This document shows positions 1,946 through 19,972 of a DNA stretch of 22,934 nucleotides, one piece after another (the stretch's first letter is position 1; every line of letters begins with the position of its first letter). The notes below the pieces were generated by a model, which was not told where the DNA came from, searched no databases, and saw only the letters and a list, made by a program, of their open reading frames with translations. The stretch lies in IMG/VR virus record IMGVR_UViG_2693429523_000013. One strand, written 5' to 3'. This stretch comes from a virus. Lineage: Duplodnaviria; Heunggongvirae; Uroviricota; Caudoviricetes. The translations under genes and the position numbers were made by a program.

Positions 1946-2152
1946 ATGGCTACCCCAGTTTCACTGATGGATGACCAGATGGTCGACATGGCATTTATCA
2001 CTCAACTGAACGGCCTGACAGATAAGTGGTTTTACAGGCTCATCAGGGATGGGGCCTTTCCGGCTCCCATCAAGCTGGGCCGCAGCTCCCGCTGGCTGAA
2101 AAGTGAAGTGGAAGCCTGGCTACAGGCGCGTATTGCACAGCCCCGCCCGTAA
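1946..2152 (+). CDS. alpA: AlpA-family phage/island transcriptional regulator (68 aa)
   Basis: MATPVSLMDDQ...LTDKWFYRLIRDGAFPAPIKLGRSSRWLKSEVEAWL is a typical AlpA HTH signature; GGAGG at 1932-1936 is 9 nt upstream of ATG 1946. The longer track ORF from 1751 has no comparable start context. Confidence 0.8.
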   Translation: MATPVSLMDDQMVDMAFITQLNGLTDKWFYRLIRDGAFPAPIKLGRSSRWLKSEVEAWLQARIAQPRP

Positions 2153-2246
2153 TTTCTGACCGTTATCCGTTCACCCGCAGCAGACGTAATCCCCGGCCTG
2201 CCGGCGGCATTCTGCTGCCTGTTATATCCCCGTGAGGAATATGAAA

Positions 2247-4190: not shown

Positions 4191-4868
4191 ATGTCCATCA
4201 TTTTTAATGGACACTATCGTATGAAACACCGGACCTGGATCACTGAAGCTTTACGTCTTCACTTTGAAGAACATTTACCCCGGGTTGTGGCCGGGCGTCG
4301 CCTGAGTGTACCAAAATCAACAGTTTGTAGTATGTTCGTGCGCTTTCGGAGAGCTGGCCTTTCGTGGCCTTTGCCCGCAGGCATGTCGGAGCAGGAACTT
4401 GATGCCTGCCTTTACGGACAATTTTCCACGGTACCAGTCGTACGTCCTGAAAGCACCGTTATATCCGAAGCCCCCGTGGTAAAAAAACGTCCCCGGCGGC
4501 CCAACTTCCCTTATGAGTTTAAAATCGCCTTAGTGGAGCAGTCACTACAGCCCGGAGCCTGTGTGGCGCAGATCGCCCGGGAAAACGGAATCAACGATAA
4601 CCTGCTCTTCAACTGGCGCCATCAATACCGGAAAGGTGGCCTGCTGCCTTCCGGAAAAAATATGCCGGCACTGCTTCCCGTGACGTTAACGCCGGAGCCG
4701 GATAATAAAATCCCGGCCCCCGCACAGGAACCAGAGCAGATAAATACACCGTCCGACAGTCTGTGTTGTGAGCTGGTTCTGCCGGCCGGAACTCTCAGGC
4801 TTAAAGGTAAACTGACGCCGGCGTTATTACAGACACTTATCCGCGAAATAAAAGGGAGCAGCCACTGA
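4191..4868 (+). CDS. tnpA: IS66-family accessory protein TnpA (orfA) with atypical N-terminal extension; start uncertain
   Basis: C-terminal part PRRPNFPYEFKIALVEQSLQPGACVAQIARENGINDNLLFNWRHQYRKGGL matches the IS66 TnpA HTH pattern. The first ~95 residues (..RRAGLSWPLPAGMSEQELDACLYGQ..) look like a separate transposase-type HTH. Confidence 0.65.
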   Translation: MSIIFNGHYRMKHRTWITEALRLHFEEHLPRVVAGRRLSVPKSTVCSMFVRFRRAGLSWPLPAGMSEQELDACLYGQFSTVPVVRPESTVISEAPVVKKRPRRPNFPYEFKIALVEQSLQPGACVAQIARENGINDNLLFNWRHQYRKGGLLPSGKNMPALLPVTLTPEPDNKIPAPAQEPEQINTPSDSLCCELVLPAGTLRLKGKLTPALLQTLIREIKGSSH

Positions 4869-5215
4869 TGATATCTCTCCCTGCAGGTTCGCGTATCTGG
4901 CTGGTTGCAGGTATCACCGATATGCGAAATGGCTTTAACGGCCTGGCATCAAAAGTTCAGAACGTCCTGAAGGATGACCCGTTCTCCGGACACCTGTTCA
5001 TCTTCCGCGGACGCCGGGGTGACCAGATAAAAGTGTTGTGGGCTGACAGTGACGGACTGTGCCTCTTCACCAAACGCCTGGAGCGGGGCCGCTTCGTCTG
5101 GCCAGTCACCCGTGACGGCAAGGTGCACCTTACTCCGGCTCAGTTATCCATGCTTCTTGAAGGTATCAACTGGAAGCACCCGAAACGAACGGAACGCGCT
5201 GGAATCCGCATATAA
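4868..5215 (+). CDS. tnpB: IS66-family TnpB (orf2), 115 aa
   Basis: MISLPAGSRIWLVAGITDMRNGFNGLASKVQ...GDQIKVLWADSDGLCLFTKRLERGRFVWP is the characteristic IS66 Orf2 sequence; start overlaps the tnpA stop. Confidence 0.9.
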   Translation: MISLPAGSRIWLVAGITDMRNGFNGLASKVQNVLKDDPFSGHLFIFRGRRGDQIKVLWADSDGLCLFTKRLERGRFVWPVTRDGKVHLTPAQLSMLLEGINWKHPKRTERAGIRI

Positions 5216-5234
5216 CCCGTTGTAAAGTGAGGAT

Positions 5235-6806
5235 ATGGACACCTCACTTGCTCATGAGAACGCCCGCCTGCGGGCACTGTTGCAGACGCAACAGGACACC
5301 ATCCGCCAGATGGCTGAATACAACCGCCTGCTCTCACAGCGGGTGGCGGCTTATGCTTCCGAAATCAACCGGCTGAAGGCGCTGGTTGCGAAACTGCAAC
5401 GTATGCAGTTCGGTAAAAGCTCAGAAAAACTTCGTGCAAAAACCGAACGGCAGATACAGGAAGCACAGGAGCGAATCAGCGCACTTCAGGAAGAAATGGC
5501 GGAAACGCTGGGTGAGCAATATGACCCGGTACTGCCATCCGCCCTGCGCCAGTCTTCAGCCCGTAAACCGTTACCGGCCTCACTTCCCCGTGAAACCCGG
5601 GTTATCCGGCCGGAAGAGGAATGCTGTCCTGCCTGTGGTGGTGAACTCAGTTCTCTGGGATGTGATGTGTCAGAGCAACTGGAGCTTATCAGCAGCGCCT
5701 TTAAGGTTATCGAAACACAACGTCCGAAACAGGCCTGTTGCCGGTGCGACCATATCGTGCAGGCACCAGTACCTTCAAAACCCATTGCACGCAGTTATGC
5801 CGGAGCGGGGCTTCTGGCCCATGTTGTCACCGGGAAATATGCAGACCATCTGCCGTTATACCGCCAGTCAGAAATATACCGTCGTCAGGGAGTGGAGCTG
5901 AGCCGTGCCACACTGGGGCGCTGGACAGGTGCTGTTGCTGAACTGCTGGAGCCGCTGTATGACGTCCTGCGCCAGTATGTGCTGATGCCCGGTAAAGTCC
6001 ATGCTGATGATATCCCCGTCCCGGTCCAGGAGCCGGGCAGCGGTAAAACCCGGACAGCCCGGCTGTGGGTCTACGTCCGTGATGACCGTAACGCCGGTTC
6101 ACAGATGCCCCCGGCGGTCTGGTTCGCGTACAGTCCGGACCGGAAAGGTATCCATCCACAAAATCACCTGGCCGGTTACAGCGGTGTGCTTCAGGCCGAT
6201 GCTTACGGTGGTTACCGGGCGTTATACGAATCCGGCAGAATAACGGAAGCCGCGTGTATGGCTCATGCCCGGAGAAAAATCCACGATGTGCATGCAAGAG
6301 CGCCCACCTACATCACCACGGAAGCCCTGCAGCGTATCGGTGAACTGTATGCCATCGAGGCAGAGGTCCGGGGCTGTTCAGCAGAACAGCGTCTGGCGGC
6401 AAGAAAAGCCAGAGCCGCGCCACTGATGCAGTCACTGTATGACTGGATACAGCAACAGATGAAAACACTGTCGCGTCACTCAGATACGGCAAAAGCGTTC
6501 GCATACCTGCTGAAACAGTGGGATGCACTGAACGTGTACTGCAGTAATGGCTGGGTGGAAATCGACAACAACATCGCAGAGAACGCCTTACGGGGAGTGG
6601 CCGTAGGCCGGAAAAACTGGATGTTCGCGGGTTCCGACAGCGGTGGTGAACATGCGGCGGTGTTGTACTCGCTGATCGGCACATGCCGTCTGAACAATGT
6701 GGAGCCAGAAAAGTGGCTGCGTTACGTCATTGAACATATCCAGGACTGGCCGGCAAACCGGGTACGCGATCTGTTGCCCTGGAAAGTTGATCTGAGCTCT
6801 CAGTAA
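5235..6806 (+). CDS. tnpC: IS66-family transposase TnpC (523 aa)
   Basis: N-terminal coiled-coil/leucine-zipper region, CxxC...CxxC zinc-finger motifs (CPACGG...CCRCDH) and a C-terminal DDE region typical of IS66 transposases; GAGG lies just upstream of ATG 5235. Confidence 0.9.
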
Positions 6807-6855
6807 ATATCAATACGGTTCTGACGAGTCGCTTACAAACAAAAGGCTGGTTAAC

Positions 6856-7077
6856 ATGAAAAAAATGGCAATTGTCGATAAAAAGGGTCTGGAGTACATT
6901 CCTAATATCGATCGTATGATCCGTGAGAAAGAATGTCGGGAGCTAACCACTCTTGCGAACAGCACACGCTGGAAGCTGGAGAAGGAAGGAAAATTTCCTA
7001 AGCGGATCAAGATTGGTTCCACTGCTGTTGCATATCGTCTTTCAGAAGTGCAGGCATGGATTAGGGGAGAGTGGTAA
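6856..7077 (+). CDS. AlpA-family HTH regulator (73 aa)
   Basis: ...ELTTLANSTRWKLEKEGKFPKRIKIGSTAVAYRLSEVQAWIRGE fits the AlpA/excisionase-like HTH pattern; begins 20 bp after the IS66 right end. Confidence 0.7.
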   Translation: MKKMAIVDKKGLEYIPNIDRMIREKECRELTTLANSTRWKLEKEGKFPKRIKIGSTAVAYRLSEVQAWIRGEW

Positions 7078-7128
7078 GAATTTAGACAGTGGATGTAATC
7101 CTATGGGGTAAACCCATAGGATTTGAAA

Positions 7129-8478
7129 TCACTTAAATTCAAATACGTGCGTAGTTGATGAGATTATATAATTAGGTGGTAAGTATTGAACTATTTCTCC
7201 ATCTTCTTCAAAAATATGAATAACTCTTGGGAATAATTCAGGGTGTATAGGATTTAATGCCTTCGGATTATGAAACATGTATATTGCTGTACACCATGGT
7301 TCTTGATATGAAGGTGCATTGACAAGAGCAGTAAAAGGCATTGGGGTACAGCCTTCATCAGTTTTAATACCTCTAACGATGGATTTGACATTTTTTTGTT
7401 CAATCCCTGCCACTACTCCCATCCTATCAAATTTTGGGATGGTGGCATGTGTCGCAAGTAATATGGCTGAGACATTCTCATTTTTATTAGAGCCGAAAAA
7501 ATTAGATTGTATACTTCGATTTTCAAATAAATGTTGTTCAATTTTACTTCCAGAATCCATATCTACACCATACAGATAGCTTTGTAGTGCTGGCATTGAT
7601 ATACTCATCGAAAATCTGCGTGAGTAATCGTGTAAAGCAATAATGAAAGGCTTTCCTTTTGTATGATCTAGTTCCCAATAGCATAATTTTAAGGGTTCAG
7701 GTTTATGCCTAACTTTCTTTAATAGAGTGCGGGCAAATTTGAATGGCATTTGTTCTTTTACATATCTCTGAAGATCTTCTACTGCCTCATGATCAAGTAT
7801 CAATTTCTCGGTAGGTTCCTCTTGTTCTGCAACTGTGGCAGCTTCTACAGCAATATCAATGCCATTTTTTGAGATAATATAATCAGGTTGAGCATAATCT
7901 CTGCATATTACGAAATCCATTTCGTAGAAAACTGCGTTTAGATAAAGTTCGAATAAGCGAGAGTTAAATGAAGCACTCTGGAAATCTCTGATGAATATTC
8001 CATCAGGATCTTTACACCAATAAGCTAACTCTTGCATAACAATAAATGCAGGATAGTGTTTGGGTTCCTCAAGTAGCATTCTTAGATAAACGTTTTTTTT
8101 ATGTTCTGGAACTTTGGCTAGGAATATTGAAAATGCCGACTCTGATTCGTCACCCTGTATAAAACAACCGTTCTTGTGTAGTGATAATAGCTCTGGTATG
8201 GCTTTTTCCATATCAGTAATTAAATCATCTTTAGATTCACGGGATACAATTACTTTAATCGCTCTAAATTTTTTATCTAAATCCCTACCTAGAAATATAG
8301 CGTTGTAATCATTATCTATTTTACAAAAAACAATTGTTGCTAAGATCGTGACATCATCCTTTATAAATTTGAACCAACAGATTTCCTCCGAAAAGGTTTT
8401 TACGTATGGTGTACGACCATAGAAAAATACATCAAATTGTTCTTTACTGATTTCTAGCATTTTGTGACTTGTTGTCAT
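7129..8478 (-). CDS. hypothetical protein, 449 aa, AT-rich cargo gene of unknown function
   Basis: Uninterrupted 1350-nt minus-strand ORF; AAGGA is 7 nt upstream of the ATG (complement of 8476-8478). Visibly AT-rich compared with flanking DNA (by eye, not computed). No confident family assignment. Confidence 0.7.
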   Translation of the reverse strand: MTTSHKMLEISKEQFDVFFYGRTPYVKTFSEEICWFKFIKDDVTILATIVFCKIDNDYNAIFLGRDLDKKFRAIKVIVSRESKDDLITDMEKAIPELLSLHKNGCFIQGDESESAFSIFLAKVPEHKKNVYLRMLLEEPKHYPAFIVMQELAYWCKDPDGIFIRDFQSASFNSRLFELYLNAVFYEMDFVICRDYAQPDYIISKNGIDIAVEAATVAEQEEPTEKLILDHEAVEDLQRYVKEQMPFKFARTLLKKVRHKPEPLKLCYWELDHTKGKPFIIALHDYSRRFSMSISMPALQSYLYGVDMDSGSKIEQHLFENRSIQSNFFGSNKNENVSAILLATHATIPKFDRMGVVAGIEQKNVKSIVRGIKTDEGCTPMPFTALVNAPSYQEPWCTAIYMFHNPKALNPIHPELFPRVIHIFEEDGEIVQYLPPNYIISSTTHVFEFK

Positions 8479-8501
8479 AGAAGAATCCTTTATGCAAATT
8501 A

Positions 8502-8696
8502 TCAGCCTTTAGGTGTTATTCCTTGTTTTATTAGTTCGGCACGAGCCAGTTCTTTTAGCCAGTTACCTAAGCTCATCCCTTCTTTGGCAGCGACATTAAC
8601 CATTTGTTCTTTTAATTCTGGGTTAATACGGACTTGGAATGCTGGTGCTTTACCTGCACCTTTCGGTTGTTTATCACGTTGAATGATAGTTGACAT
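8502..8696 (-). CDS. ribbon-helix-helix (Arc/CopG-like) DNA-binding protein, 64 aa; likely regulator of the downstream 449-aa gene
   Basis: ..FQVRINPELKEQMVNVAAKEGMSLGNWLKELARAEL.. matches the beta-strand/helix/helix pattern of Arc-type repressors. Its stop is 23 nt upstream of the 449-aa gene start on the same strand. Confidence 0.6.
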   Translation of the reverse strand: MSTIIQRDKQPKGAGKAPAFQVRINPELKEQMVNVAAKEGMSLGNWLKELARAELIKQGITPKG

Positions 8697-8738
8697 GTGT
8701 GTACCTATTGCTTAGTATGATTCTTGATAGGTACACAC
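8697..8738. promoter_or_regulatory. 12-bp perfect inverted repeat (GTGTGTACCTAT-N18-ATAGGTACACAC) directly upstream of the RHH gene; candidate operator or translational hairpin
   Basis: Arms at 8697-8708 and 8727-8738 are exact reverse complements. On the minus strand, the arm adjacent to the start codon contains the only SD-like sequence (AGGT) for the RHH gene. Confidence 0.4.
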
Positions 8739-8835
8739 CTTATCATGTTTTATTGCTATATAACAACGCCCTGCAGTGCTCGCAACACATACAGGGCGTC
8801 TAACCACCAACGATAGCAACAGTATCGAGGTAGCT

Positions 8836-9039
8836 ATGAGAAATCATACCACACACCCGCAAGGGCGGGATTCGCACAACCTGAATAAATACATCTGGCG
8901 TTTTATCGCCCTGAGCACCGCACAACCACGCGTAATACACATCGAGGCCGCCAGCGAACAGGAAGCCCGCCAGCAATCCCCAACTGGCTACGTGATGATA
9001 TTCGCCGCCCGTATTCGTCAGGAGGTGTGCCGTGCTTAA
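8836..9039 (+). CDS. hypothetical small protein (67 aa), first gene of the divergent plus-strand operon
   Basis: GAGG at 8827-8830 precedes ATG 8836. The track ORF from 8776 is longer but lacks an RBS. No family recognised. Confidence 0.35.
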   Translation: MRNHTTHPQGRDSHNLNKYIWRFIALSTAQPRVIHIEAASEQEARQQSPTGYVMIFAARIRQEVCRA

Positions 9040-9217
9040 AACCTTCCGTGTATTTGCCCGAGCTGTTAACCCACTGGGCCACACAATTGGTATCACTCAG
9101 AACGTGAAGGCTGTTAATGTTCAGACGGCTATTGCTGCGGTGAGAAGCGAATCATCAGAATATGGCTTATCACAAGTCATTATTTCAGCAGTGTATGAAT
9201 TAAAAGAGGTGCATTAA
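9032..9217 (+). CDS. hypothetical small protein (61 aa)
   Basis: GTG start at 9032 with GGAGG at 9021-9025 (6-nt spacing); overlaps the previous stop, suggesting translational coupling. Confidence 0.4.
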   Translation: MLKTFRVFARAVNPLGHTIGITQNVKAVNVQTAIAAVRSESSEYGLSQVIISAVYELKEVH

Positions 9218-9408
9218 TGAAGGAAATTACATTACACGAAGCCGCTGAACGTGCGCACCAGACAGAAATTATTTGCCGCCTTCTTGAGGTATACCCGAAC
9301 AAAATTACAGATGCTGATATATCCGCGCTGGCGAGCCTACTGGCGCGCCTTTCGGGAAGTGTCGCTAGTTTCCTGATTGAGGAAGAAAGTAAGCTGGTGG
9401 GGGATTAA
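9217..9408 (+). CDS. hypothetical small protein (63 aa)
   Basis: ATG overlaps the upstream stop (TAATG); AGAGG lies upstream. Confidence 0.45.
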   Translation: MKEITLHEAAERAHQTEIICRLLEVYPNKITDADISALASLLARLSGSVASFLIEEESKLVGD

Positions 9409-9630
9409 ATGAATACAGAACGGGAAGTCTTTTTTAAATTGTTAGCATGTGCAGAAAGTTCATTAACTTTAAATAATTCAGCAAAAGCAATATTAAATAT
9501 GTGGCTTGATTGCATAAATGACAATGAAGATGCAAATATTGCTTATGGCCTGTTGTCACTTATTGATGAATCAGCAGAAAAACTCAATGACGCAATAAAT
9601 AGTGCCCTGCTATCAAATAAGTCGAGTTAA
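9409..9630 (+). CDS. hypothetical small protein (73 aa), AT-rich
   Basis: Start immediately follows the previous stop and is preceded by a G-rich SD-like stretch. Confidence 0.45.
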   Translation: MNTEREVFFKLLACAESSLTLNNSAKAILNMWLDCINDNEDANIAYGLLSLIDESAEKLNDAINSALLSNKSS

Positions 9631-9647
9631 GTCGAGGAATAAATAAT

Positions 9648-9947
9648 ATGGAAATGAAAAATTCTGGCTTTATTGCCAGCGGCCCCGCTCGGCCTGAATT
9701 TATGAACGGCGATATTTACCGCGATAAATACGGCGGCACGGTAACGATTAAAGGCGTGGCAGAACGGCGCATCACTTACCGCCGTGAGGGGTATAGCTAT
9801 GACTGCGTGATGCCTGTTTATCAGTTCCGGCGTGATTTTTCCCTGGTATATGCCGCACCCCGCAGTAAGCCCATCAGCAGGGAAAAAGCGCGGGGAAACA
9901 TCCAGAAAATGAAAAGCATGATTAACGCATTCAGGGGCAAAAAATGA
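9648..9947 (+). CDS. hypothetical protein (99 aa)
   Basis: GAGGAA precedes the ATG; the stop overlaps the primase start (ATGA). Confidence 0.5.
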   Translation: MEMKNSGFIASGPARPEFMNGDIYRDKYGGTVTIKGVAERRITYRREGYSYDCVMPVYQFRRDFSLVYAAPRSKPISREKARGNIQKMKSMINAFRGKK

Positions 9948-11695
9948 AACTGGCACCGAACTTAAAAAAACAGCCACGCGACAGACTGACAGAGGTAATC
10001 ATCTTTGCAGGTAGTGATGCGTGGAGCCATGCGAAAGAGTGGCGGGAATGGGCGGGTAAACATATTGCCGCCGACGATGTGCCGCCTGTCGTGCTGGCTG
10101 ATGAGCAACTGAAAAATATCACCGATTACCGGATCATTGATGAAGATCGTCAGTGTGTGCGTGTTTACCGCGCAGGACATATCACAGAGCACAGCATGAC
10201 GCAGATTGTTACGTTACTGGCTGTGGCTGGAGTGAAGACCGTACACGAATACGCGGGGATTACTGACACCAGCCCAGTGGATTTATCCGAGCAGTTGCCG
10301 CGACTCAAAGAGGAATGCGAGCGTGGGGAAAGTCTGGTGCTTAATCTTCCGACGAAGCAAAAGGCGCAACTTTCACAGATGGCAGACAGTGAACGTGCAC
10401 AACTACTTGCCGATCGCTTTGATGGTGTGTGTGTTCATGCAGAAAGTGAAATCGTCCACGTATGGCGCGGCGGGGTATGGTGTCCGGTCAGCACAATGGA
10501 GCTGAGCCGCGAAATGGTGGCGATCTATTCAGAGCACAGGGCCACGTTCAGCAAACGTGTAATCAATAACGCCGTGGAAGCGTTAAAAGTTATTGCCGAC
10601 CCCATGGGGGAGCCGTCCGGTGATTTGCTACCGTTCACTAATGGTGTGCTTAACCTGAAAACGGGGGAATTTTCTCCGCACTCGCCGGAGCACTGGAGCA
10701 CCACGCACAATGGCATTGAGTACACGCCACCAGTAGCAGGGGAAAACATCCGCGATAATGCGCCAAATTTCCATAAATGGCTTGAACATGCTGCAAGAAA
10801 AGACCCGCGTAAGATGATGCGTATATGTGCCGCGTTATACATGATTATGGCGAACCGCTACGACTGGCAGATGTTCATTGAGGCCACCGGAGACGGGGGA
10901 AGCGGTAAGAGTACATTTACCCATATTGCCACCCTGCTTGCTGGCAAACAGAACACCGTAAGCGCGGAGATGACATCACTCGATGATGCAGGAGGGCGCG
11001 CGCAGGTTGTCGGGAGTCGTCTTATCGTCCTTGCCGATCAGCCGAAATATACGGGGGAAGGCACGGGCATCAAGAAAATCACGGGAGGCGATCCCGTTGA
11101 AATTAACCCGAAATATGAGAAGCGATTCACGACGATAATAAGGGCGGTGGTACTGGCAACCAATAACGACCCGATGATCTTTACCGAACGGGCCGGAGGT
11201 GTGTCACGCCGTCGGGTGATTTTCCGGTTCGACAACATTGTAAGGGAGGACGAAAAAGACAAGGAATTACCGGAAAAGATAGCGGCAGAAATCCCCGTAA
11301 TTATCCGCCGCTTGCTGGCTAATTTTGCTGCCCCTGAAAAGGCACGGGCTTTATTACTGGAACAGCGTGACGGTGATGAAGCTCTGGCAATAAAGCAGCA
11401 AACGGATCCGGTTGTTGAGCTTTGCGCGGCGCTGGAGTTTCTGGAGGAAGCTCGTGGGCTAATGATGGGCGGTGGTGGTGACACCGTGAAGTACACGACC
11501 AGAAACAGCCTTTACCGTGTCTATATGGCCTTCATGGCATACACAGGAAAGGGGAAATGTTTGAGCGTGAATGAGTTCGGAAAGGCTATGAGGTCAGCGG
11601 CGAAAGTTTACGGATATGAATATATTACGCGAAAAGTTAAGGGAGTCACGCAGACCAACGCAACGACTACTGATGATTGCGATGCGTTTTTATAA
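9944..11695 (+). CDS. phage/plasmid primase-helicase, P4-alpha C-terminal type (D5_N-like plus SF3 NTPase), 583 aa
   Basis: Walker A GDGGSGKST and Walker B-like RLIVLADQP; overall architecture is that of P4-family / PICI replication proteins as recalled. An iteron array lies directly downstream. Confidence 0.85.
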   Translation: MKLAPNLKKQPRDRLTEVIIFAGSDAWSHAKEWREWAGKHIAADDVPPVVLADEQLKNITDYRIIDEDRQCVRVYRAGHITEHSMTQIVTLLAVAGVKTVHEYAGITDTSPVDLSEQLPRLKEECERGESLVLNLPTKQKAQLSQMADSERAQLLADRFDGVCVHAESEIVHVWRGGVWCPVSTMELSREMVAIYSEHRATFSKRVINNAVEALKVIADPMGEPSGDLLPFTNGVLNLKTGEFSPHSPEHWSTTHNGIEYTPPVAGENIRDNAPNFHKWLEHAARKDPRKMMRICAALYMIMANRYDWQMFIEATGDGGSGKSTFTHIATLLAGKQNTVSAEMTSLDDAGGRAQVVGSRLIVLADQPKYTGEGTGIKKITGGDPVEINPKYEKRFTTIIRAVVLATNNDPMIFTERAGGVSRRRVIFRFDNIVREDEKDKELPEKIAAEIPVIIRRLLANFAAPEKARALLLEQRDGDEALAIKQQTDPVVELCAALEFLEEARGLMMGGGGDTVKYTTRNSLYRVYMAFMAYTGKGKCLSVNEFGKAMRSAAKVYGYEYITRKVKGVTQTNATTTDDCDAFL

Positions 11696-11711
11696 AAAAT
11701 GGCAATGGTTA

Positions 11712-11934
11712 TCTACCTTGTCTACCTGACTGAAAGAAAATACTTTTATTTCAATGTATTAATGCAGGTAGATAACTATTTTTCACTGTCTACCTGTTAT
11801 CTACCTTATCTACCCATTTTTGTAGACAGGTAAGGAGACGGGTAGAGATGAGGTAGACAGCTATTTGGGGCTGTCTACCTCCCTGAAACCCGCGCCATTA
11901 CTGGCCTGATAACTAATCAGGTAGACAAGGTAGA
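11712..11934. repeat. iteron array; candidate replication origin of the satellite-like module
   Basis: About 12 copies of the hexamer TCTACC / GGTAGA in both orientations (TCTACC at 11712, 11721, 11789, 11800, 11809, 11874; GGTAGA at 11767, 11841, 11852, 11920, 11929, plus a partial copy at 11822). An AT-rich spacer sits at 11731-11766, immediately 3' of the primase gene. Confidence 0.6.
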
Positions 11935-11984
11935 CAAGGTGGTGGTGCACAAAAAACTTTTTAAACGAGGGGGTAAAAATAAAA

Positions 11985-12242
11985 ATGCACACATCAGGAA
12001 AACTGAACAAACATATAAAGCCACATTACCGCGCCCTTGATATGGCTGAACACTGGCTAAGGGTGGCGATTAAGGCAATAGACCGCAACGCCGGGGAAGG
12101 ATACGCGAAAGCACATCCCGAACTGATAAGCGCATTCATGACAACGGCGGCTGCAAACTTTGCCACGCTGACCGAACGGGAGATTGCTGAAGCGGAGGAA
12201 GTGACAACAATCAATATTAAGTCCGGAGAGCAGGCAGCATGA
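11985..12242 (+). CDS. hypothetical protein (85 aa)
   Basis: GAGGGGG lies upstream of the ATG; the stop overlaps the ssb start (ATGA). Confidence 0.5.
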   Translation: MHTSGKLNKHIKPHYRALDMAEHWLRVAIKAIDRNAGEGYAKAHPELISAFMTTAAANFATLTEREIAEAEEVTTINIKSGEQAA

Positions 12243-12688
12243 CGGCGCAAATATCAGTTTACGGGCGGTTGGTGGACGACCCGCAGACAAAACAGACCAG
12301 CAAGGGCACCCCCATGACGCTGGCGCGTATGGCGGTATCACTGCCCTGCAGTCAGTCGGATGACGGTCTGGCGACGTTGTGGTTATCTGTCCTGGCGTTT
12401 GGCAGACAAGCCGACGCGCTGGCAAAGCATCACAAAGGCGAACTCCTGAGCGTGGCGGGTAACATGCAGATGAGCCAGTGGACTGGACAGAACGGCGAAA
12501 CGCGGCAGGGCTGGCAGGTTATCGCAGACAGCGTAATCAGTGCGCGATCGGTGCGACCGGGCGGCAAAAAAGGCCAACAGGGGCAGGCTACTGACGCACT
12601 GAACAGAGCAAAACAACAGGCAGATCAGCAAGGAAGCCAGCCACCAGAGGGAGATAATGAGCAATGGGGAGATGATATCCCGTTTTAA
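12239..12688 (+). CDS. ssb: single-stranded DNA-binding protein (149 aa)
   Basis: OB-fold region aligns by eye with E. coli SSB (ISVYGRLVDDPQ.., WLSVLAFGRQAD, GELLSVAGNMQMSQWTGQNGE..); Gly/Gln-rich linker; acidic C-terminal tip ...WGDDIPF matches the SSB DDDIPF tail. Confidence 0.85.
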   Translation: MTAQISVYGRLVDDPQTKQTSKGTPMTLARMAVSLPCSQSDDGLATLWLSVLAFGRQADALAKHHKGELLSVAGNMQMSQWTGQNGETRQGWQVIADSVISARSVRPGGKKGQQGQATDALNRAKQQADQQGSQPPEGDNEQWGDDIPF

Positions 12689-12904
12689 ATATTGCCAATA
12701 AAAAAAGCCGGAAAAAATAAATTTTCCGGCATGCTACATAAATCCCGACCAAAGGGAGTGAAGATATTAACACTAATTGTCCGCACTGAAGTTGTCACCC
12801 CAAAACTTTATACAACATTGCACTCGGTTGCATGTGTTCGCATGACAAATATCGGTGATAGCATATATCCACAATTATTTTTAATGAATGCAAAGAGGAT
12901 GCGT

Positions 12905-13945
12905 ATGGTTGATTTATATTCGCCTACCCAGCTTGTACAGGTGGTTAATGCTGTAGATGTACAAAAACAACTAAATGCGTTGTTTACCAGTTTGTTTTTT
13001 ACTCGCTCGGTAATGTTTGGATCGCGCGATATTATTCTTGATACAATCGACGATCCAAATATCCCAATTGCAGCGTTTTGTTCTCCTATGGTGGGTAGTA
13101 AAGTTTCACGTGACGAAGGGTACGAATCAAAAACAATTCGTCCAGGCTATATGAAGCCGAAAAGCAGCATTGATCCAAATAAGTTAGCTGTGCGCCCTGC
13201 TGGTGTATCACCTGAGCAATACAATGCTTTTGGGGCGCGTAATATTAAAGTTAAACAGGCGATTGTAAATCAAGCTAAAGCTATTCGTGCACGTATTGAA
13301 TGGCTTGCCGTTCAGGCAATCACAACGGGGAAAAATATCATTGAGGGCGATGGTATTGAACGTTATGAGCTGGACTGGAATATTAAACCACAAAATATCA
13401 TCACTCAGTCTGGCGGTACTGAGTGGTCAGGTAAGGATAAAGAAACTTTTGATCCAAATGATGATATTGAGAGCTACGCAGAATTTAGTGAGGGCGTCAC
13501 TAATATCATCATTATGGGCGGTAATGTATGGAAGAAATACCGTTCATTCAGAGCGATAAAAGAGGCTCTGGATACCCGTCGTGGTTCTAATTCCGAACTG
13601 GAAACGGCCCTTAAAGACCTTGGTGATTCGGTGAGTTTTAAAGGATATATGGGCGATGTTGCGATTGTTGTTTACAGCGGGCGTTATACCGACGAGGACG
13701 GAACTGAAAAACATTTCCTTGATCCTGATTTGATGGTGCTTGGCAATACGGCTCTTCAGGGGATTGTCGCCTATGGCGGTATTCAGGATCCGGAGCTAAT
13801 CCGAATGGGGCTGACTAAAGCCGAACTTGCACCGAAAAACTATATTGTGCCTGGTGATCCGGCTATTGAATATGTGCAGACACATTCAGCACCACAGCCA
13901 ATACCGGCCCGCATCAATCGTTTTGTTACCGTTCGCATTGGCTAA
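12905..13945 (+). CDS. major capsid protein, lambda gpE family (346 aa), divergent from lambda
   Basis: Aligns by eye along its length with lambda gpE (PGYMKPK.., NIITQSGGTEWSGKDK.., DTRRGSNSELETA identical, C-terminal ..GDPA.E...QSAP..). AGAGGA is 5 nt before ATG 12905; the track ORF start at 12692 adds 71 residues with no homology. Confidence 0.8.
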   Translation: MVDLYSPTQLVQVVNAVDVQKQLNALFTSLFFTRSVMFGSRDIILDTIDDPNIPIAAFCSPMVGSKVSRDEGYESKTIRPGYMKPKSSIDPNKLAVRPAGVSPEQYNAFGARNIKVKQAIVNQAKAIRARIEWLAVQAITTGKNIIEGDGIERYELDWNIKPQNIITQSGGTEWSGKDKETFDPNDDIESYAEFSEGVTNIIIMGGNVWKKYRSFRAIKEALDTRRGSNSELETALKDLGDSVSFKGYMGDVAIVVYSGRYTDEDGTEKHFLDPDLMVLGNTALQGIVAYGGIQDPELIRMGLTKAELAPKNYIVPGDPAIEYVQTHSAPQPIPARINRFVTVRIG

Positions 13946-13954
13946 GGGGGAGCA

Positions 13955-14296
13955 ATGGCTACTCATTACACTGAACTCATGGCTGGCACTGAAGCACTGG
14001 TGACTACGCTGGGGATATTTTCAGCTAATAAAGGGGTAATTCCTGCATTTACGCCACTGATGCAGGAAGATGCAACAGGTGCACTGGTGGTATGGGATGG
14101 TTCGAGCGTAGGTAAAGCGGTTTATGTTTCCGCTGTACAAATCGACACCGCGAAAAAAACACAGGCTCAGGTCTATAAGACAGGTGTCTTAAATGTTGAT
14201 GCTCTGAACTGGCCTGAGTCTGTAAAAGAACTGTCAGTAAAGATTGCAGCGTTTGTTGGCTCAGGTATTTCTGTTCAGCCGCTGGCTCGTGTGTAA
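13955..14296 (+). CDS. head decoration protein, lambda gpD-like (113 aa)
   Basis: ..TPLMQEDATGALVVWDGSSVGKAVYVSAVQ...YKTGVLNVDALNWPE...AAFVGSGISVQPL parallels lambda gpD (..TPLM...KLVAWDG...YKSGTF..VLWPE..AFAGTAISIV) as recalled. AAGGGGGA RBS present. Confidence 0.7.
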   Translation: MATHYTELMAGTEALVTTLGIFSANKGVIPAFTPLMQEDATGALVVWDGSSVGKAVYVSAVQIDTAKKTQAQVYKTGVLNVDALNWPESVKELSVKIAAFVGSGISVQPLARV

Positions 14297-14307
14297 AGGG
14301 GGATACA

Positions 14308-14691
14308 ATGCAAAATGATTACAATGACCTTAAGCCAATTGCCGAAATGATGTACCCGAATCCAGCTGTAGAGGAATTAAAAGCTATCGCTGACAAAATG
14401 TGTTTAAGCGAGCGCCTTGTTGATATGAATCAGGTGATGGAAATTACAACCCTGAGTCGGCGTACACTGCTAAACCTTGAGGCTAGTGGAGAGTTCCCGG
14501 AGCGTGTGCAGGTTACGGAAGGGCGTAAGGCCTGGTATTTAAGTGAAGTGATCGACTGGATAAATAATATTCCTCGCGCTTCTGAATATTGCCGCGTACC
14601 TGTCCCAAAAAAGCCAGATGCGGCGCTATGCCTCAAGATTGAGCGTGTACGCCGCAATGCACGGGATGGTCGCTATAAGCTGATTGGTTGA
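14308..14691 (+). CDS. AlpA-type HTH domain protein with ~40-aa N-terminal extension (127 aa)
   Basis: Residues ~40-90 (MNQVMEITTLSRRTLLNLEASGEFPERVQVTEGRKAWYLSEVIDWI) fit the AlpA HTH pattern; AAGGGGGA RBS before ATG 14308. Confidence 0.6.
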   Translation: MQNDYNDLKPIAEMMYPNPAVEELKAIADKMCLSERLVDMNQVMEITTLSRRTLLNLEASGEFPERVQVTEGRKAWYLSEVIDWINNIPRASEYCRVPVPKKPDAALCLKIERVRRNARDGRYKLIG

Positions 14692-14744
14692 TGAAATTAG
14701 GGCCCGCTCTGGCTGGCGGGTCCTTTCCGGCGATCTGACAGGCT

Positions 14745-14912
14745 ACGGGGCGTCAGGCGCGCGGATTTTCGCTATTTATGAAAATTTTCCGGTTTAAGGC
14801 GTTTCCGTTCTTCTTCGTCGTAACTTAATGTTTTTATTTAAAATACCCCCTGAAAAGAAAGGAAACGACAGGTGCTGAAAGCGAGCTTTTTGGCCTCTGT
14901 CGTTTCCTTTCT
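14745..14912 (+). promoter_or_regulatory. lambda-type cos region: cosN-like site (~14745-14762) and cosB with three CGTTTCC-core R elements
   Basis: 14760-14936 reads almost exactly as the recalled lambda left-end/cosB sequence upstream of Nu1. R3 is at 14791-14797, inverted R2 at 14861-14867 and R1 at 14901-14907; R2/R1 lie in a 16-bp perfect inverted repeat (14856-14871 / 14897-14912). The 12-mer at 14748-14759 is GGGCGTCAGGCG rather than the recalled lambda GGGCGGCGACCT. Confidence 0.7.
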
Positions 14913-14936
14913 CTGTTTTTGTCCGTGGAATGAACA

Positions 14937-15488
14937 ATGGAAGTCAACAAAAAGCAGCTGGCTGACATTTTCGGTGCGAGTATCCGTACCATTCAGAACT
15001 GGCAGGAACAGGGAATGCCCGTTCTGCGAGGCGGTGGCAAGGGTAATGAGGTGCTTTATGACTCTGCCGCCGTTATAAGATGGTATGCCGAAAGGGATGC
15101 TGAAATTGAGAACGAAAAGCTGCGCCGGGAAGTTGAAGAACTGCGGCAGGCCAGCGAGACAGATCTCCAGCCAGGGACTATTGAGTACGAACGCCATCGA
15201 CTTACGCGTGCGCAGGCCGACGCACAGGAACTGAAGAATGCCAGCGAAACAGGTGAGGTAATTGACACTGCATTTGCGACTTATGCCTTGTCGAAATTAA
15301 CTGGGGAAGTTGGAGCAATCATTGATAGTCTTCCACTTGCGATCTGTCGACAGTTTCCTGGCATGGAAAAACGGTATCAGGACTTCATTAAGATGGAGGT
15401 CAGTAAAGCATTTATTCGAGCTTACCAGATCTCAGATAACATTCCAGATATGGCTGAAAGGTATATCAAGGATAATCAGCGAAGTTAA
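14937..15488 (+). CDS. Nu1: terminase small subunit Nu1, chimeric: lambda-type N-terminal DNA-binding domain with a divergent C-terminal domain
   Basis: First ~100 residues (MEVNKKQLADIFGASIRTIQNWQEQGMPVLRGGGKGNEVLYDSAAVI.WYAERDAEIENEKLRREVEELRQASE.DLQPGTIEYERHRLTRAQADAQELKNA) match lambda gpNu1 as recalled; the C-terminal ~80 residues are similar in length but clearly different. Confidence 0.9.
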   Translation: MEVNKKQLADIFGASIRTIQNWQEQGMPVLRGGGKGNEVLYDSAAVIRWYAERDAEIENEKLRREVEELRQASETDLQPGTIEYERHRLTRAQADAQELKNASETGEVIDTAFATYALSKLTGEVGAIIDSLPLAICRQFPGMEKRYQDFIKMEVSKAFIRAYQISDNIPDMAERYIKDNQRS

Positions 15489-15544
15489 AACAAATGAAAC
15501 CATAGGTAGGAAGAGTGCTTAGGTGGTTCTTTGTTGCTTAAAAG

Positions 15545-15577
15545 TCGCCAGTAAAACTGGCGATAGATTTTATTTGT
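15545..15577 (+). terminator. rho-independent terminator-like hairpin after Nu1
   Basis: 8-bp stem TCGCCAGT/ACTGGCGA (15545-15552 / 15557-15564) with a 4-nt loop, followed by the T-rich run tagattttatttg. Lies between convergent Nu1 and the DUF2971-like gene. Confidence 0.45.
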
Positions 15578-15594
15578 CAAAAGCATTTGACCTT

Positions 15595-16500
15595 TTAAGG
15601 TAGTGGTACTATGGATATTTTTCTGTCGTTCCCAAATGAACTTTTAAATAATTTCGCTCTTGGATACATTTTAACTAGTGATGCGACTTCATCGAACTCG
15701 CTGGCATCAAAAAGAGGACCAAGTATTACAGATTTTAACTCAAAAGGGTGAAATTTTAAGTCGCTATATTGACCAGTGCTATTTGGCCTAGCGTAGGTTG
15801 AAATTCTCCACTCTCTTTCATATGCCCATTCTTCTGTTTTTATGAATATTATCTCATTATTGATATATTCAATTGACTTATTGTCTGGCATGAAAAGCAA
15901 CTCGGCCATCCCTTCAGCAGTGTGAGTTAGAGGCATTTCATCTGTGTATTTCATAGGTTTGGCTATTAACCAAGCGCTATCCAGAAAGTCTACACAATCA
16001 AATTCGATAACTATACCTTTATATTTATCGGCATAGTGATTCCACATAGGAGTGATTATAGGGCTCTCAGATAAACACAAAATCCTTCTGTTATTAAGCA
16101 TTCCTCGCCAGACATCTTTCATTTCTTGTATTGCCGCAGGAGCGCCAATCCCAACTGGTGGAATGTTTACCATTTCTTGAAATCTTTCAATTAATCCTGC
16201 GGGTATGCCTAAAGGAAATGACTTTTGGAAATCACTTAGCATTGTTCTAATTCTAGGGTTTAAATTTTGTATGTCTTCTCTGGGGGTAATCAACTCCGCT
16301 ATTAACTTGCGGGCTAAAGCTTTGCCAATATTAATTTCGTTAATACCAGGCATAACTTCTCTTGGAACATCAAAAGGGTCATTAAATAGGACCGGAGAAC
16401 TCCATCTAAGGCTGCATGAATCAAGAACAATCTTCGCGGTATTCAACGACATATACTTATAAAATGTTGAGCGTTCATGCATTCTGTTGGGTGAGCGCAT
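15595..16500 (-). CDS. DUF2971-like protein (301 aa), AT-rich moron
   Basis: N-terminal ..STFYKYMSLNTAKIVLDSCSLRWSSPVLFNDPFDV.. matches the recalled DUF2971 signature (YKY.S...L...lw.S.p..FNDPFD). AGAGGA is 4 nt upstream of the ATG (complement of 16498-16500). AT-rich by eye. Confidence 0.7.
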   Translation of the reverse strand: MRSPNRMHERSTFYKYMSLNTAKIVLDSCSLRWSSPVLFNDPFDVPREVMPGINEINIGKALARKLIAELITPREDIQNLNPRIRTMLSDFQKSFPLGIPAGLIERFQEMVNIPPVGIGAPAAIQEMKDVWRGMLNNRRILCLSESPIITPMWNHYADKYKGIVIEFDCVDFLDSAWLIAKPMKYTDEMPLTHTAEGMAELLFMPDNKSIEYINNEIIFIKTEEWAYEREWRISTYARPNSTGQYSDLKFHPFELKSVILGPLFDASEFDEVASLVKMYPRAKLFKSSFGNDRKISIVPLP

Positions 16501-16648
16501 AGATTCCTCTTGTTAAATGAGTGATGGTTTTCATCCATGTATTGCACGTTGTATTGCATTCAAGGATTTTCCATTTCAATTCTATAGCTAAAACGTAATC
16601 AAATCATTCACATCCTTTCATATTTGACTCATGTAGCCGAAGCATGAG

Positions 16649-17425
16649 GTGAATCCGCAGATGACCCTGCGTCGCCTGCCGGATGAAGATCCGCAGAATC
16701 TGGCGGACCCGGCTTACCGCCGCCGTCGCATCATCATGCAGAACATGCGAGACGAAGAGCTGGCCATTGCTCAGGTCGAAGAGATGCAGGCAGTTTCTGC
16801 TGTGCTTAAGGGCAAATACACCATGACCGGTGAAGCCTTCGATCCGGTTGAGGTGGATATGGGCCGCAGTGCGGCGAACAACATCACACAGTCCGGTGGT
16901 ACGGAGTGGAGCAAGCGTGACAAGTCCACGTATGACCCGACCGACGATATCGAAGCCTATGCGCTGAACGCCAGCGGAGTGGTGAATATCATCGTGTTTG
17001 ATCCGAAAGGCTGGGCGCTGTTCCGTTCCTTCAAAGCCGTCAAGGAGAAGCTGGATACCCGTCGCGGCTCTAATTCCGAGCTGGAGACAGCGGTAAAAGA
17101 CCTGGGCGAAGCGGTGTCCTATAAGGGGATGTATGGCGATACGGCGATCGTCGTGTATTCCGGACAGTACGTGGAAAACGACGTCAAAAAGAACTTCCTT
17201 CCGGACAACACGATGGTGCTGGGGAACTCTCAGGCACGCGGTCTGCGCACCTATGGCTGCATTCAGGATGCGGACGCACAGCGCGAAGGTATTAACGCCT
17301 CTGCCCGCTACCCGAAAAACTGGGTGACCACCGGCGATCCGGCGCGTGAGTTCACCATGATTCAGTCAGCACCGCTGATGCTGCTGGCTGACCCTGATGC
17401 GTTCGTGTCCGTACAACTGGCGTAA
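16649..17425 (+). pseudogene. E: major capsid protein E, lambda-type, 5'-truncated (lacks ~80 N-terminal codons)
   Basis: Translation MNPQMTLRRLPDEDPQNLADPAYRRRRIIMQNMRDEE... to ..FVSVQLA is near-identical to lambda gpE residues ~84-341 as recalled. Lambda similarity begins near 16637; an in-frame TAG sits at 16634-16636 and upstream DNA is unrelated. Confidence 0.8.
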
Positions 17426-17466
17426 TCATGGCCCTTCGGGGCCATTTTCTCTCTGTGGAGGAGTCT

Positions 17467-17862
17467 ATGACGAAAGATGAACTGATTGCCCGTCTTCAGG
17501 TGCTGGGTGAGCAACTGAACCGTGATGTCAGCCTGACGGGGACGAAAGAAGAACTGGTGCTCCGTGTGGCAGAGCTGGAAGAGGAGCTTGATGACACGGA
17601 TGACGCTGCCGGTCAGGACACATCTGTCAGCCCGGAAAATGCGCTGACCGGACATGAAAATGAGGTTGTATCAGCGCAGCCGGATACCGTGACTGATACG
17701 GCTGATCTGGTCACGGTTGTGGCACTGGTGACGCTGCATACTGATGCACTTCACGCCACGCGGGATGAGGCTGTGGCATTTGTGCTGCCGGGAACGGCGT
17801 TCCGTGTCTCTGCCGGTGTGTCAGCTGAAATGACAGAGCGCGGCCTGGCCAGAATGCAATAA
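17467..17862 (+). CDS. FI: lambda-type FI protein (DNA packaging / head assembly)
   Basis: MTKDELIARLQVLGEQLNRDVSLTGTKEEL...TERGLARMQ is near-identical to lambda gpFI; GGAGGAG RBS before ATG 17467. The track ORF from 17428 is an upstream extension. Confidence 0.9.
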   Translation: MTKDELIARLQVLGEQLNRDVSLTGTKEELVLRVAELEEELDDTDDAAGQDTSVSPENALTGHENEVVSAQPDTVTDTADLVTVVALVTLHTDALHATRDEAVAFVLPGTAFRVSAGVSAEMTERGLARMQ

Positions 17863-17873
17863 CGGGAGGCGCT

Positions 17874-18227
17874 GTGGCTGATTTCGATAACCTGTTCGAT
17901 GCTGCCATTGCCCGCGCCGATGAAACGATACGCGGGTACATGGGAACGTCAGCCACCATGACATCCGGTGAGCAGTCCGGCGCAGTAATACGTGGTGTTT
18001 TTGATGACCCTGAAAATATCAGCTATGCCGGACAGGGCGTGCGCGTTGAAGGCTCCAGCCCGTCCCTGTTTGTCCGGACTGATGATGTGCGGCAGCTGCG
18101 GCGCGGCGACACGCTGACCATCGGTGAGGAAAACTTCTGGATAGACCGGATTTCGCCGGATGATGGCGGAAGCTGTCATCTCTGGCTTGGGCGGGGCGTA
18201 CCGCCTGCCGTTAACCGTCGCCGCTGA
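17874..18227 (+). CDS. FII: lambda-type FII head-tail joining protein
   Basis: MADFDNLFDAAIARADETIRGYMGTSA...HLWLGRGVPPAVNRRR is near-identical to lambda gpFII. Confidence 0.92.
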   Translation: MADFDNLFDAAIARADETIRGYMGTSATMTSGEQSGAVIRGVFDDPENISYAGQGVRVEGSSPSLFVRTDDVRQLRRGDTLTIGEENFWIDRISPDDGGSCHLWLGRGVPPAVNRRR

Positions 18228-18238
18228 AAGGGGGATGT

Positions 18239-18817
18239 ATGGCCATAAAAGGTCTTGAGCAGGCCGTTGAAAACCTCAGTCGTATCAGCAGAGCGGCGGT
18301 GCCCGGTGCCGCCGCAATGGCCATTAACCGCGTTGCTTCATCCGCGATATCGCAGTCGGCGTCACAGGTTGCCCGTGAGACAAAGGTACGCCGGAAACTG
18401 GTAAAGGAAAGGGCCAGGCTGAAAAGGGCCACGGTCAAAAATCCGCAGGCCAGAATCAAGGTTAACCGGGGGGATTTGCCCGTAATAAAGCTGGGTAACG
18501 CGCGGATTGTCCTGTCCCGACGCAGGCGTCGTAAAAAGGGGCAGCGTTCAGCCCTGAAAGGTGGCGGCAGCGTGCTTGTGGTGGGAAACCGTCGTATTCC
18601 CGGCGCGTTTATTCAGCAACTGAAACATGGCCGCTGGCATGTCATGCAGCGTGTGGCCGGGAAAAACCGTTACCCCATTGATGTGGTGAAAATCCCGATG
18701 GCGGTGCCGCTGACCACGGCGTTTAAACAGAATATTGAGCGGATACGGCGTGAGCGTCTTCCGAAAGAGCTGGGCTATGCGCTGCAGCATCAACTGAGGA
18801 TGGTAATAAAGCGATGA
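18239..18817 (+). CDS. Z: lambda-type minor tail protein Z
   Basis: MAIKGLEQAVENLSRISRAAVPGAAAMAINRVASS... 192 aa, matches lambda gpZ. Confidence 0.92.
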   Translation: MAIKGLEQAVENLSRISRAAVPGAAAMAINRVASSAISQSASQVARETKVRRKLVKERARLKRATVKNPQARIKVNRGDLPVIKLGNARIVLSRRRRRKKGQRSALKGGGSVLVVGNRRIPGAFIQQLKHGRWHVMQRVAGKNRYPIDVVKIPMAVPLTTAFKQNIERIRRERLPKELGYALQHQLRMVIKR

Positions 18818-19209
18818 AACATACTGAACTCCGTGCAGCCGTACTGGATGCACTGGAGAAGCATGACACCGGGGCGACGCTTTTTGATGGTCGCCCCGCT
18901 GTTTTTGATGAGGAAGATTTTCCGGCAATTGCCGTTTATCTCACCGGCGCTGAATACACGGGCGAAGAGCTGGACAGCGATACCTGGCAGGCGGAGCTGC
19001 ATATTGAAGTTTTCCTGCCTGCTCAGGTGCCGGATTCAGAGCTGGATGCGTGGATGGAGTCCCGGATTTATCCGGTGATGAGCGATATCCCGGCACTGTC
19101 AGATTTGATCACCAGTATGGTGGCCAGTGGCTATGACTACCGGCGCGACGATGATGCGGGCCTGTGGAGTTCAGCCGATCTGACTTATGTCATTACCTAT
19201 GAAATGTGA
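18814..19209 (+). CDS. U: lambda-type tail terminator protein U
   Basis: [52 protein letters not shown]... 131 aa, matches lambda gpU; start overlaps the Z stop. Confidence 0.92.
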
Positions 19210-19216
19210 GGACGCT

Positions 19217-19957: not shown

Positions 19958-19972
19958 TCCGGAGAGTCAGAG

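Follow-up and report, generated by a model that had tools for sequence, protein, structure and literature searches.

A probable HE-PICI satellite with its own capsid and decoration genes, lodged in gene E of a lambda-like prophage

A stretch of E. coli DNA of 22,934 nucleotides (IMG/VR virus record IMGVR_UViG_2693429523_000013; the whole stretch is called the window here) was analysed to follow up an initial annotation, made from the letters alone, which had marked positions 8700-14760 as a satellite-like module with its own E-like capsid and D-like decoration genes beside a lambda-type cos site. With a probability of roughly 0.9, positions 6837-16644 of the window are a helper-embedded phage-inducible chromosomal island (HE-PICI) of the E:Phage_cap_E:80 group, a satellite residing in a lambda-like prophage. 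The block is an ~11-kb element set into the major capsid gene (gene E) of the helper prophage and co-oriented with the late operon of the helper. This insertion inside the capsid gene is the defining feature of the element, and the initial annotation missed it. The published attR, the interruption of gene E, the int and attL of intact relatives and a set of intact, selected genes all agree, and the element is therefore a satellite and not the decayed recombinant prophage that had been named as the alternative.

The family is already published (Tommasini, Mageeney and Williams 2023, NAR Genom Bioinform; PMC10111431), with 491 HE-PICIs at 14 late-gene sites and 201 instances at E:Phage_cap_E:80 with a 10-bp identity block, and the window adds no new kind of element. 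The mosaic small terminase, the variant cosN and the defence cargo described below are not in the family paper. The type element of the group, 11capE (Eco567.11capE of E. coli NRG857c; locus L003), was followed after mitomycin C: the composite excises and replicates, then the satellite excises precisely and restores gene E, as seen by quantitative PCR and deep sequencing (PMC10111431).

A satellite living in its helper's capsid gene controls when that gene can be expressed, and the class has been described only recently and is little studied. The window shows that an annotation made without tools had singled out a genuine satellite, and it supplies a further example of a satellite with anti-phage defence cargo (PD-T7-1). 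Beyond this, its interest comes down to three things: the part played by the PICI capsid and decoration proteins, the cosN variant, and the mosaic small terminase.

Insertion in gene E and the missing left end

The satellite spans 6837 to 16644 and is wider than the module first marked. Its right end is an attR, whose crossover identity block AGCCGAAGCA (16635-16644, plus strand) is the 10-mer common to attL and attR of an intact relative, L001 (strain 184/2aE, NZ_CP072858); the supplement of PMC10111431 gives the 10-mer 'agccgaagca' as the identity block of E_Phage_cap_E_80 elements. The core AGCCGAAGCA reads in frame into helper gene E at codon ~80, so that the insertion lies in a cognate of lambda gene E at the family's site; attL is missing from the window. 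The 3' part of the gene ('E, codons ~79-341) occupies 16635-17425 on the plus strand, as read from the translation of its open reading frame (ORF) and from the RefSeq annotation of 98%-identical relatives. After 'E the helper late genes FI, FII, Z, U, V, G, T and H continue up to the end of the window.

A doubled arm motif TGTATTGCAcgtTGTATTGCA of the kind typical of HE-PICI attP sites lies at 16538-16558 (plus strand), identified by motif and spacing according to PMC10111431. In that paper the HE-PICI attP arm is a doubled motif tgTGTATTGCantgTGTATTGCa ~81 bp upstream of the attP centre; in the window this motif is found at the same positions, and the distance from its end to the centre of the attR core is ~81 bp. 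The second copy of the arm motif, which in attP is downstream of the core, is seen upstream of int in L001 and is lost from the window. The alpA, primase, ssb, capsid, decoration and terS genes are all on the plus strand, co-oriented with helper 'E-FI-...-H, and their order fits the four HE-PICI zones (integration, dynamic/Bro, replication and late).

The intact relatives supply what the window lacks. Window 6836-22934 aligned at ~98% identity to a dozen chromosomes (megablast, 5,426 complete E. coli genomes), and the homology with intact relatives begins only at ~6836. These relatives measure ~11.1 kb from core to core. In L001 the helper genes to the left of the island are nohD-terL-W-portal-S49 protease-D-E' (82 codons); the island itself reads int-alpA-...-primase-ssb-capsid-decoration-HTH-terS-DUF2971, where HTH stands for helix-turn-helix, and is followed by 'E (263 codons)-FI and onward. 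The core AGCCGAAGCA is found at both L001 junctions, and when the two flanks are joined in silico they read ...GYVKPKHEVNP..., as in lambda gpE. The attR of L001, its doubled TGTATTGCA motif and the late genes further downstream all recur in the window.

The search for an integrase and att repeats that the initial annotation had called for gave a divided answer. ORF and domain analysis found no integrase within the 22.9-kb window, and attL is likewise gone; attR is present, and both int and attL occur in intact relatives. Islands which align at ~98-99% over the shared ~81-82% of window 7000-16600 carry int, and the int genes of the IMG/VR copies are 99-100% identical to that of L001. The missing integrase is a secondary loss and not a matter of ancestry. 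What is left of int is its last 19 nt (6837-6855, plus strand; ...KQKAG*), recognised by alignment with L001 int 10620-11855.

All the rest of int was replaced by an IS66-family insertion sequence (4138-6836, plus strand), in which ORF analysis places tnpA at 4191-4868, tnpB at 4868-5215 and a transposase at 5235-6806. It stands in place of the satellite integrase, attL and the helper left arm, so the helper terminase, portal, protease, D and E' are missing in the window. The ends of the element are imperfect terminal inverted repeats (GTAACCGGCTC... and GTAAGCGACTC...), and the 8-mers which border it (4130-4137 and 6837-6844) are unlike, CCTTAATG against AAACAAAA, with no 8-bp target duplication. 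On its other side is window 1-4137, which has a 100% match at another locus, a CP4-44-like island in the yeeO/flu neighbourhood; the segment is 100% identical in several E. coli chromosomes. With unrelated flanks and no target duplication, a simple IS66 insertion was rejected; the site is therefore a rearrangement junction, made by deletion or inversion between copies of the insertion sequence. Since int, attL and the helper left arm were lost to this rearrangement, this copy of the satellite is probably stranded and unable to excise alone.

Capsid and decoration genes, cos and small terminase

The E-like then D-like gene order reported at first is borne out by domain matches. The E-like major capsid protein (12905-13945, plus strand; 346 aa) matches the full Phage_cap_E profile at 4e-41 and belongs to a satellite lineage: it is 99.4% identical to that of 11capE, 55% to c1499 of the cos-type PICI EcCICFT073 and 42% to lambda gpE, which at 42.3% is its best phage match among 50,697 phage records. 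It is 47% identical to the helper E fragment. A longer 417-aa version of this ORF, beginning at TTG 12692, was an artefact of ORF finding; the conserved start is at 12905 (MVDLYS..., with AAGAGGA before it). The D-like head decoration protein (13955-14296, plus strand; 113 aa; HDPD 4.4e-15) is 100% identical to that of 11capE, 54% to c1500 of EcCICFT073 and 38% to both lambda and helper gpD. A recent capture of the pair from the helper was rejected on these figures (47% and 38% identity to the helper, with a best phage match of 42%).

Between the decoration gene and cos is a second AlpA-family helix-turn-helix protein of 127 aa, AlpA-127 (14308-14691, plus strand; Phage_AlpA 7.6e-9), which matches AlpA in the PDB (8c3t, 2.1e-9) and phrog_2790 (1.1e-49). 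Selection was analysed on 46-51 related copies from IMG/VR and RefSeq, with the ratio of nonsynonymous to synonymous substitution rates (dN/dS) taken against the window. The ORF is intact in every copy (46/46 for E-like, 51/51 for D-like and 51/51 for AlpA-127). The dN/dS is 0.05-0.09 for E-like and, in the more diverged copies, 0.11-0.24 for D-like and 0.05-0.10 for AlpA-127. These figures mark strong purifying selection on all three genes, and E-like and D-like can be read from these sequences as functional, selected proteins. At least 80% of the E-D-AlpA-cos block is found in 394 of the 5,426 complete E. coli genomes (7.3%); the prevalence estimate in PMC10111431 is ~5.4%.

The lambda-type cos (14716-14936, plus strand) was aligned with lambda, the resident helper and two other islands, and its cosQ, cosN and cosB align base for base with lambda. 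The initial annotation had recognised it correctly, with cosN (14748-14759) at the end of the feature it marked. The cosN sequence, GGGCGTCAGGCG, is common to the window, the L001 island and 11capE, and differs from lambda GGGCGGCGACCT at 5/12 positions. An exact-match scan of IMG/VR for GGGCGTCAGGCG returned 57 loci; in ~53 of them, all HE-PICIs, the late block precedes cos at constant offsets and helper 'E follows 1.9-2.3 kb downstream. The idea that GGGCGTCAGGCG is found only in satellites was rejected by L016, L050 and L061, where it occurs in ordinary lambda-type cos-Nu1-A contexts (in L050 with E uninterrupted). It is therefore a natural lambdoid cosN variant, and matching helpers exist.

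The module does not end at cos as had been claimed: a Nu1-type terS and a DUF2971 gene follow before the right end at 16635-16644. The initial annotation listed no large terminase subunit, portal or protease, and none of these lies within 6837-16644 (head-tail connector genes are likewise absent there); the lack of a terminase holds for the large subunit only, since a complete small subunit is encoded just past cos. This is a mosaic Nu1-type small terminase (TerS) of 183 aa (14937-15488, plus strand; Phage_Nu1 3.6e-84; PDB 6hn7_B and 1j9i). At the nucleotide level cosB and the first ~95 Nu1 codons are 96-100% identical to lambda; after ~15230, roughly codon 100, identity drops to 36-62%. Over residues 1-100 the protein shares ~96-97% identity with the Nu1 of lambda and of the helper, and past that point 43%. 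This pattern points to a recombination breakpoint within the Nu1 gene, in window 15230-15488. For the C-terminal ~85 residues, identity to phage Nu1 proteins reaches just 41-45%, and no phage match exceeds 44.6%. A terminator-like hairpin follows the Nu1 gene, ahead of the leftward DUF2971 gene.

The C-terminal segment of this Nu1 occurs in 32 of the 5,426 genomes, nearly all of them with the segment joined to the DUF2971 gene, which means that ~8% of these islands (32 of ~394 E. coli genomes with the block) have the mosaic small terminase. Relatives carry (a) mosaic Nu1 with DUF2971, (b) another full-length TerS, 36% identical, or (c) no TerS at all, or Nu1 start codons which run into unrelated sequence, as in 11capE. 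With these three configurations after cos, TerS is therefore optional for the HE-PICI family. A redirection of packaging of the Rpp type was also considered and rejected, with AlpA-127 matching AlpA in the PDB and giving no match to Rpp there, and with a true Nu1 as the gene after cos. No island protein tested had a PDB match to Rpp. In the Rpp group cosB is unrelated to that of the helper; the cosB of this island is, as said, nearly that of lambda.

Regulatory, replication and cargo genes

The first gene after the int remnant is an alpA-type excisionase/regulator gene of the integration zone (6856-7077, plus strand; phrog_2790 'excisionase and transcriptional regulator', 5.6e-18), and its position matches that of the helix-turn-helix gene after int in L001 and 11capE. 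The divergent regulator and small early ORFs of the initial annotation are confirmed. The regulator is a 64-aa Arc/ribbon-helix-helix or HicB-like repressor (8502-8696, minus strand; Pfam HicB 5e-4; phrog_228 Arc-like repressor 1.2e-5), and it is faced by a rightward promoter-like site, TTGACA-17-TAGTAT (8690-8718, plus strand; 10/12 match), the top promoter match of a scan over 8.3 kb. A perfect 12-bp palindrome GTGTGTACCTAT/ATAGGTACACAC (8690-8740) brackets the -10 element of this site and is likely an operator for the neighbouring Arc-like repressor.

The early ORFs run from 8776 to 9947 on the plus strand, and the block matches phrogs 3672, 1478 and 2196. It comprises an Icd-like gene (8776-9039; NCBIfam phage_ICD_like 1.1e-19), three small conserved ORFs (9032-9217, 9217-9408 and 9409-9630) and a DUF4222 gene (9648-9947; DUF4222 9e-24). 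Next is the gene for a primase/helicase (pri-rep) of 583 aa (9944-11695, plus strand) with Pfam matches to D5_N (1.3e-15), DUF5906 (6.2e-10) and Pox_D5 (6e-4); its C-terminal domain scores 102.6 bits against TIGR01613 'primase, P4 family', below the cut-off of 108.7. The iteron origin at 11708-11937 consists of GGTAGAYA repeats, no fewer than 10 and in either orientation, on both sides of an AT-rich stretch. All 10 exact matches in the window fall inside 11710-11936, with 0.71 expected, and 0/100 shuffles reach 10. A conserved 85-aa ORF (11985-12242, plus strand; phrog_1231 3.2e-48) and the single-stranded DNA-binding protein SSB (12239-12688, plus strand; Pfam SSB 2.1e-15) complete the replication module, in which primase/helicase, iteron array and ssb are all as first described. 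In the intergenic space between ssb and the E-like gene is a hairpin GCCGGAAAAAATAAATTTTCCGGC (12703-12731), flanked 5' by a run of A and resembling a terminator for the minus strand alone; its position is between the replication and late modules.

The island has cargo at two positions. In the variable zone is a PD-T7-1 anti-phage defence gene of 449 aa (7129-8478, minus strand), which matches PADLOC PD-T7-1 over its full length at 1e-153; the protein has no Pfam or NCBIfam match. Before attR is the DUF2971 gene (15595-16500, minus strand; DUF2971 1e-9; PADLOC PDC-S31 2.5e-32), a candidate defence gene. In L001 the two positions hold a second DUF2971 gene and a SWIM zinc-finger gene, and in 11capE HEPN and DUF262 genes, and they behave as variable accessory slots. 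Late modules which are ~99% identical (IMG/VR loci L006-L062) are paired with at least three primase modules, at 97-100%, 78-79% and 43-50% identity, and also with the three post-cos configurations, which indicates frequent module exchange within the HE-PICI family. At the far left of the window, the CP4-44-like island segment (1-4137) holds AlpA-type helix-turn-helix, inovirus Gp2-family and Hha/YmoA genes and is unrelated to the satellite.

Proposed mechanism, alternative readings and known systems

In lambda-like prophages the satellite integrase targets a 10-bp site within gene E, at codon ~80. In the mechanism we propose, going by the anatomy of the region, the Arc-like repressor and its operator would control the rightward early operon, the primase/helicase would fire the GGTAGAYA iteron origin with the help of the island's own SSB, and the late block would be expressed by read-through or in an AlpA-dependent way. 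Concatemers would be cut and packaged at the island cos by the large terminase of the helper; in the sub-lineage of the window, recruitment may go through the island's own Nu1-type TerS, whose DNA-binding half is helper-identical. The helper would give portal, protease/scaffold, tail and lysis functions. E-like and D-like would most likely assemble on the helper portal and scaffold into, or with, heads which carry the satellite, and they may also stand in for the interrupted gene E of the helper. By size arithmetic, a lambda-sized head would be filled by four copies of the 11.1-kb unit (a tetramer of ~44 kb), and a much smaller one by a single copy. A tentative elaboration, which we consider unlikely, is that E-like, D-like and the mosaic TerS make up a minimal 'shell plus address label' kit: the island would assemble a shell for itself, perhaps of reduced size, on the portal and scaffold of the helper, and the private TerS C-terminus and variant cosN would bias packaging to the satellite while helper E is interrupted.

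What the late module is for may be answered differently. Tommasini et al. (PMC10111431) suggested that the capsid homologue is a backup for the interrupted helper gene, and it is possible, if doubtful, that E-like and D-like serve mainly in this way, making heads before or without satellite excision. The satellite disrupts E while its attP carries no replacement sequence, and among the late genes of Gram-negative PICIs those for capsid proteins are the most frequent (PMC10111431); the island also has a full-length E homologue together with a partner D homologue. However, EcCICFT073, which is not embedded in a helper and whose helper E is intact, has the same capsid-decoration pair in the same order, and backup is therefore not the original function; simple substitution is also uncertain at 42-47% identity to helper E and 38% to helper D. 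It is quite unlikely that the late module acts mainly by interference, with E-like poisoning or re-sizing helper heads and the mosaic Nu1 competing for cosB or forming heterodimers with helper Nu1 without engaging the large terminase, like Rpp at the same post-cos position in EcCICFT073. The shared order cap-dec-X-cos-(rpp or Nu1) would fit such a role, as would a Nu1 whose N-terminal 100 residues, including the DNA-binding domain, are nearly those of lambda and the helper while its C-terminal part is not, and Rpp acts through helper TerS residues 1-98 (PDB 6hn7). Yet the mosaic Nu1 is confined to 32 of the ~394 block-bearing genomes, with a vestige in 11capE, and is dispensable for the family, and deletion of c1499 or c1500 in EcCICFT073 gave no relief of lambda interference and did not restore lambda plaquing (PMC6092414).

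As to the element itself, a decayed or recombinant lambdoid prophage, with E-like and D-like as leftovers of a duplicated or exchanged head module, could account for the genuine lambda-type late genes on the right flank, the lack of an integrase in the window, and the insertion sequence with its rearrangement scars. This is very improbable when gene E is broken at one precise 10-bp site, when int and attL are there in the intact copies, when alpA, P4-family primase, iterons and ssb form a PICI-like set and not lambdoid early genes, and when the type element excises precisely (PMC10111431). Moreover, E-like reaches only 42-47% identity with the E protein of any phage or of the helper and clusters with PICI c1499 at 55%, with copies that are all intact at a dN/dS of ~0.05-0.1. 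Hardly more credible is membership in another satellite family, P4-like or capsid-forming PICI (cf-PICI): the P4-family C-terminal domain of the primase, the cos beside morphogenesis genes and the element's own capsid gene could suggest it, and they are set against a lack of Sid, Psu, Delta and Cnr homologues and of any C4/isrK RNA match, and of portal, protease, large terminase and connectors within 6837-16644.

Several points weigh against the reading of the element as a HE-PICI satellite packaged with the help of its lambda-like prophage. The authors recovered no plaques or virions from the type strain (PMC10111431), and particles have been shown for no family member. The deletion result for c1499 and c1500 counts here as well, and in the view of the authors of that study EcCICFT073 DNA goes into heads of full size (PMC6092414). 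The cosN of the helper in L001 is AGGCGGCGACCT, from which the satellite cosN differs at 6/12 positions, and it is assumed that the terminase of the embedding helper cuts the satellite cosN. In lambda Nu1 it is the C-terminal part that binds gpA, the large terminase, and the private C-terminal half of the island Nu1 might not bind that of the helper. Finally, int and attL may still exist outside the window at another place in the genome, moved there for instance by an inversion.

The P4 logic of the initial annotation is only partly upheld. Like P4, the element is an ~11-kb integrative satellite with a P4-family primase/helicase domain (below threshold, as given above), an iteron origin, a cos and an AlpA-type regulator, and its virion parts are supplied by the helper. 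Unlike P4, it has a lambdoid and not a P2-like helper, and a true major-capsid homologue instead of an external scaffold; Pfam and PHROG searches of the window found no homologues of sid, psu, delta, epsilon or cnr, and no Rfam family, including the C4/isrK (CI) RNA, reached gathering score across the whole window. The element is of the PICI type. With cf-PICIs it has in common its own major capsid protein and small terminase. The cf-PICIs make every head and packaging protein themselves and borrow nothing but tails (10.1101/2022.09.08.507074), whereas this element has only E-like, D-like and Nu1 within 6837-16644.

The features by which Gram-negative PICIs are recognised (Fillol-Salom 2018, PMC6092414) are all found save int: a size of ~10-15 kb, alpA, pri-rep with ori, a packaging signal, accessory genes and a lack of lysis and tail genes. 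The model Gram-negative PICI of the cos type, EcCICFT073 (Fillol-Salom 2018, PMC6092414; 2019, PMC6739421), has the same capsid and decoration genes (c1499 and c1500), then one ORF and cosQ/cosN, as in the window, with a gene for a Nu1-like winged helix-turn-helix directly after cos and with lambdoid helpers. It differs in that it sits in the chromosome, beside phoQ in the stretch fetched, and not in a helper, and its cosN is GGGCGGCGACCT, that of lambda. Its cosB is reported to be unrelated to that of the phage (PMC6092414; PMC6739421), whereas the window element keeps the lambda cosB and a full Nu1. Its post-cos gene is reported to be rpp, and the 144-aa ORF there is 31% identical to the island Nu1 over 64 residues only.

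The closest known system is the published type element. Compared with 11capE, the window copy has lost int and attL to the IS66 rearrangement, so that of the tyrosine integrase of the HE-PICI clade only the 19-nt end is left, with alpA kept. Its primase comes from another module, and it carries PD-T7-1 and DUF2971 where 11capE carries HEPN and DUF262. 11capE is described as lacking terS (PMC10111431) and has kept no more of Nu1 than a vestige of 11 residues from its start, within a 64-aa ORF, against the full-length mosaic Nu1 of the window, and the att core is AACCCAAGCA in 11capE and AGCCGAAGCA in the window. Otherwise the two agree: they share the site, the type of identity block, the doubled TGTATTGC arm motif and the orientation, the gene order of 11capE (int-alpA-cargo-repressor-icd-DUF4222-primase-ori-ssb-capsid-decoration-AlpA-cos) is that of the window, and both have nearly or fully identical E-like and D-like proteins and the same variant cosN.

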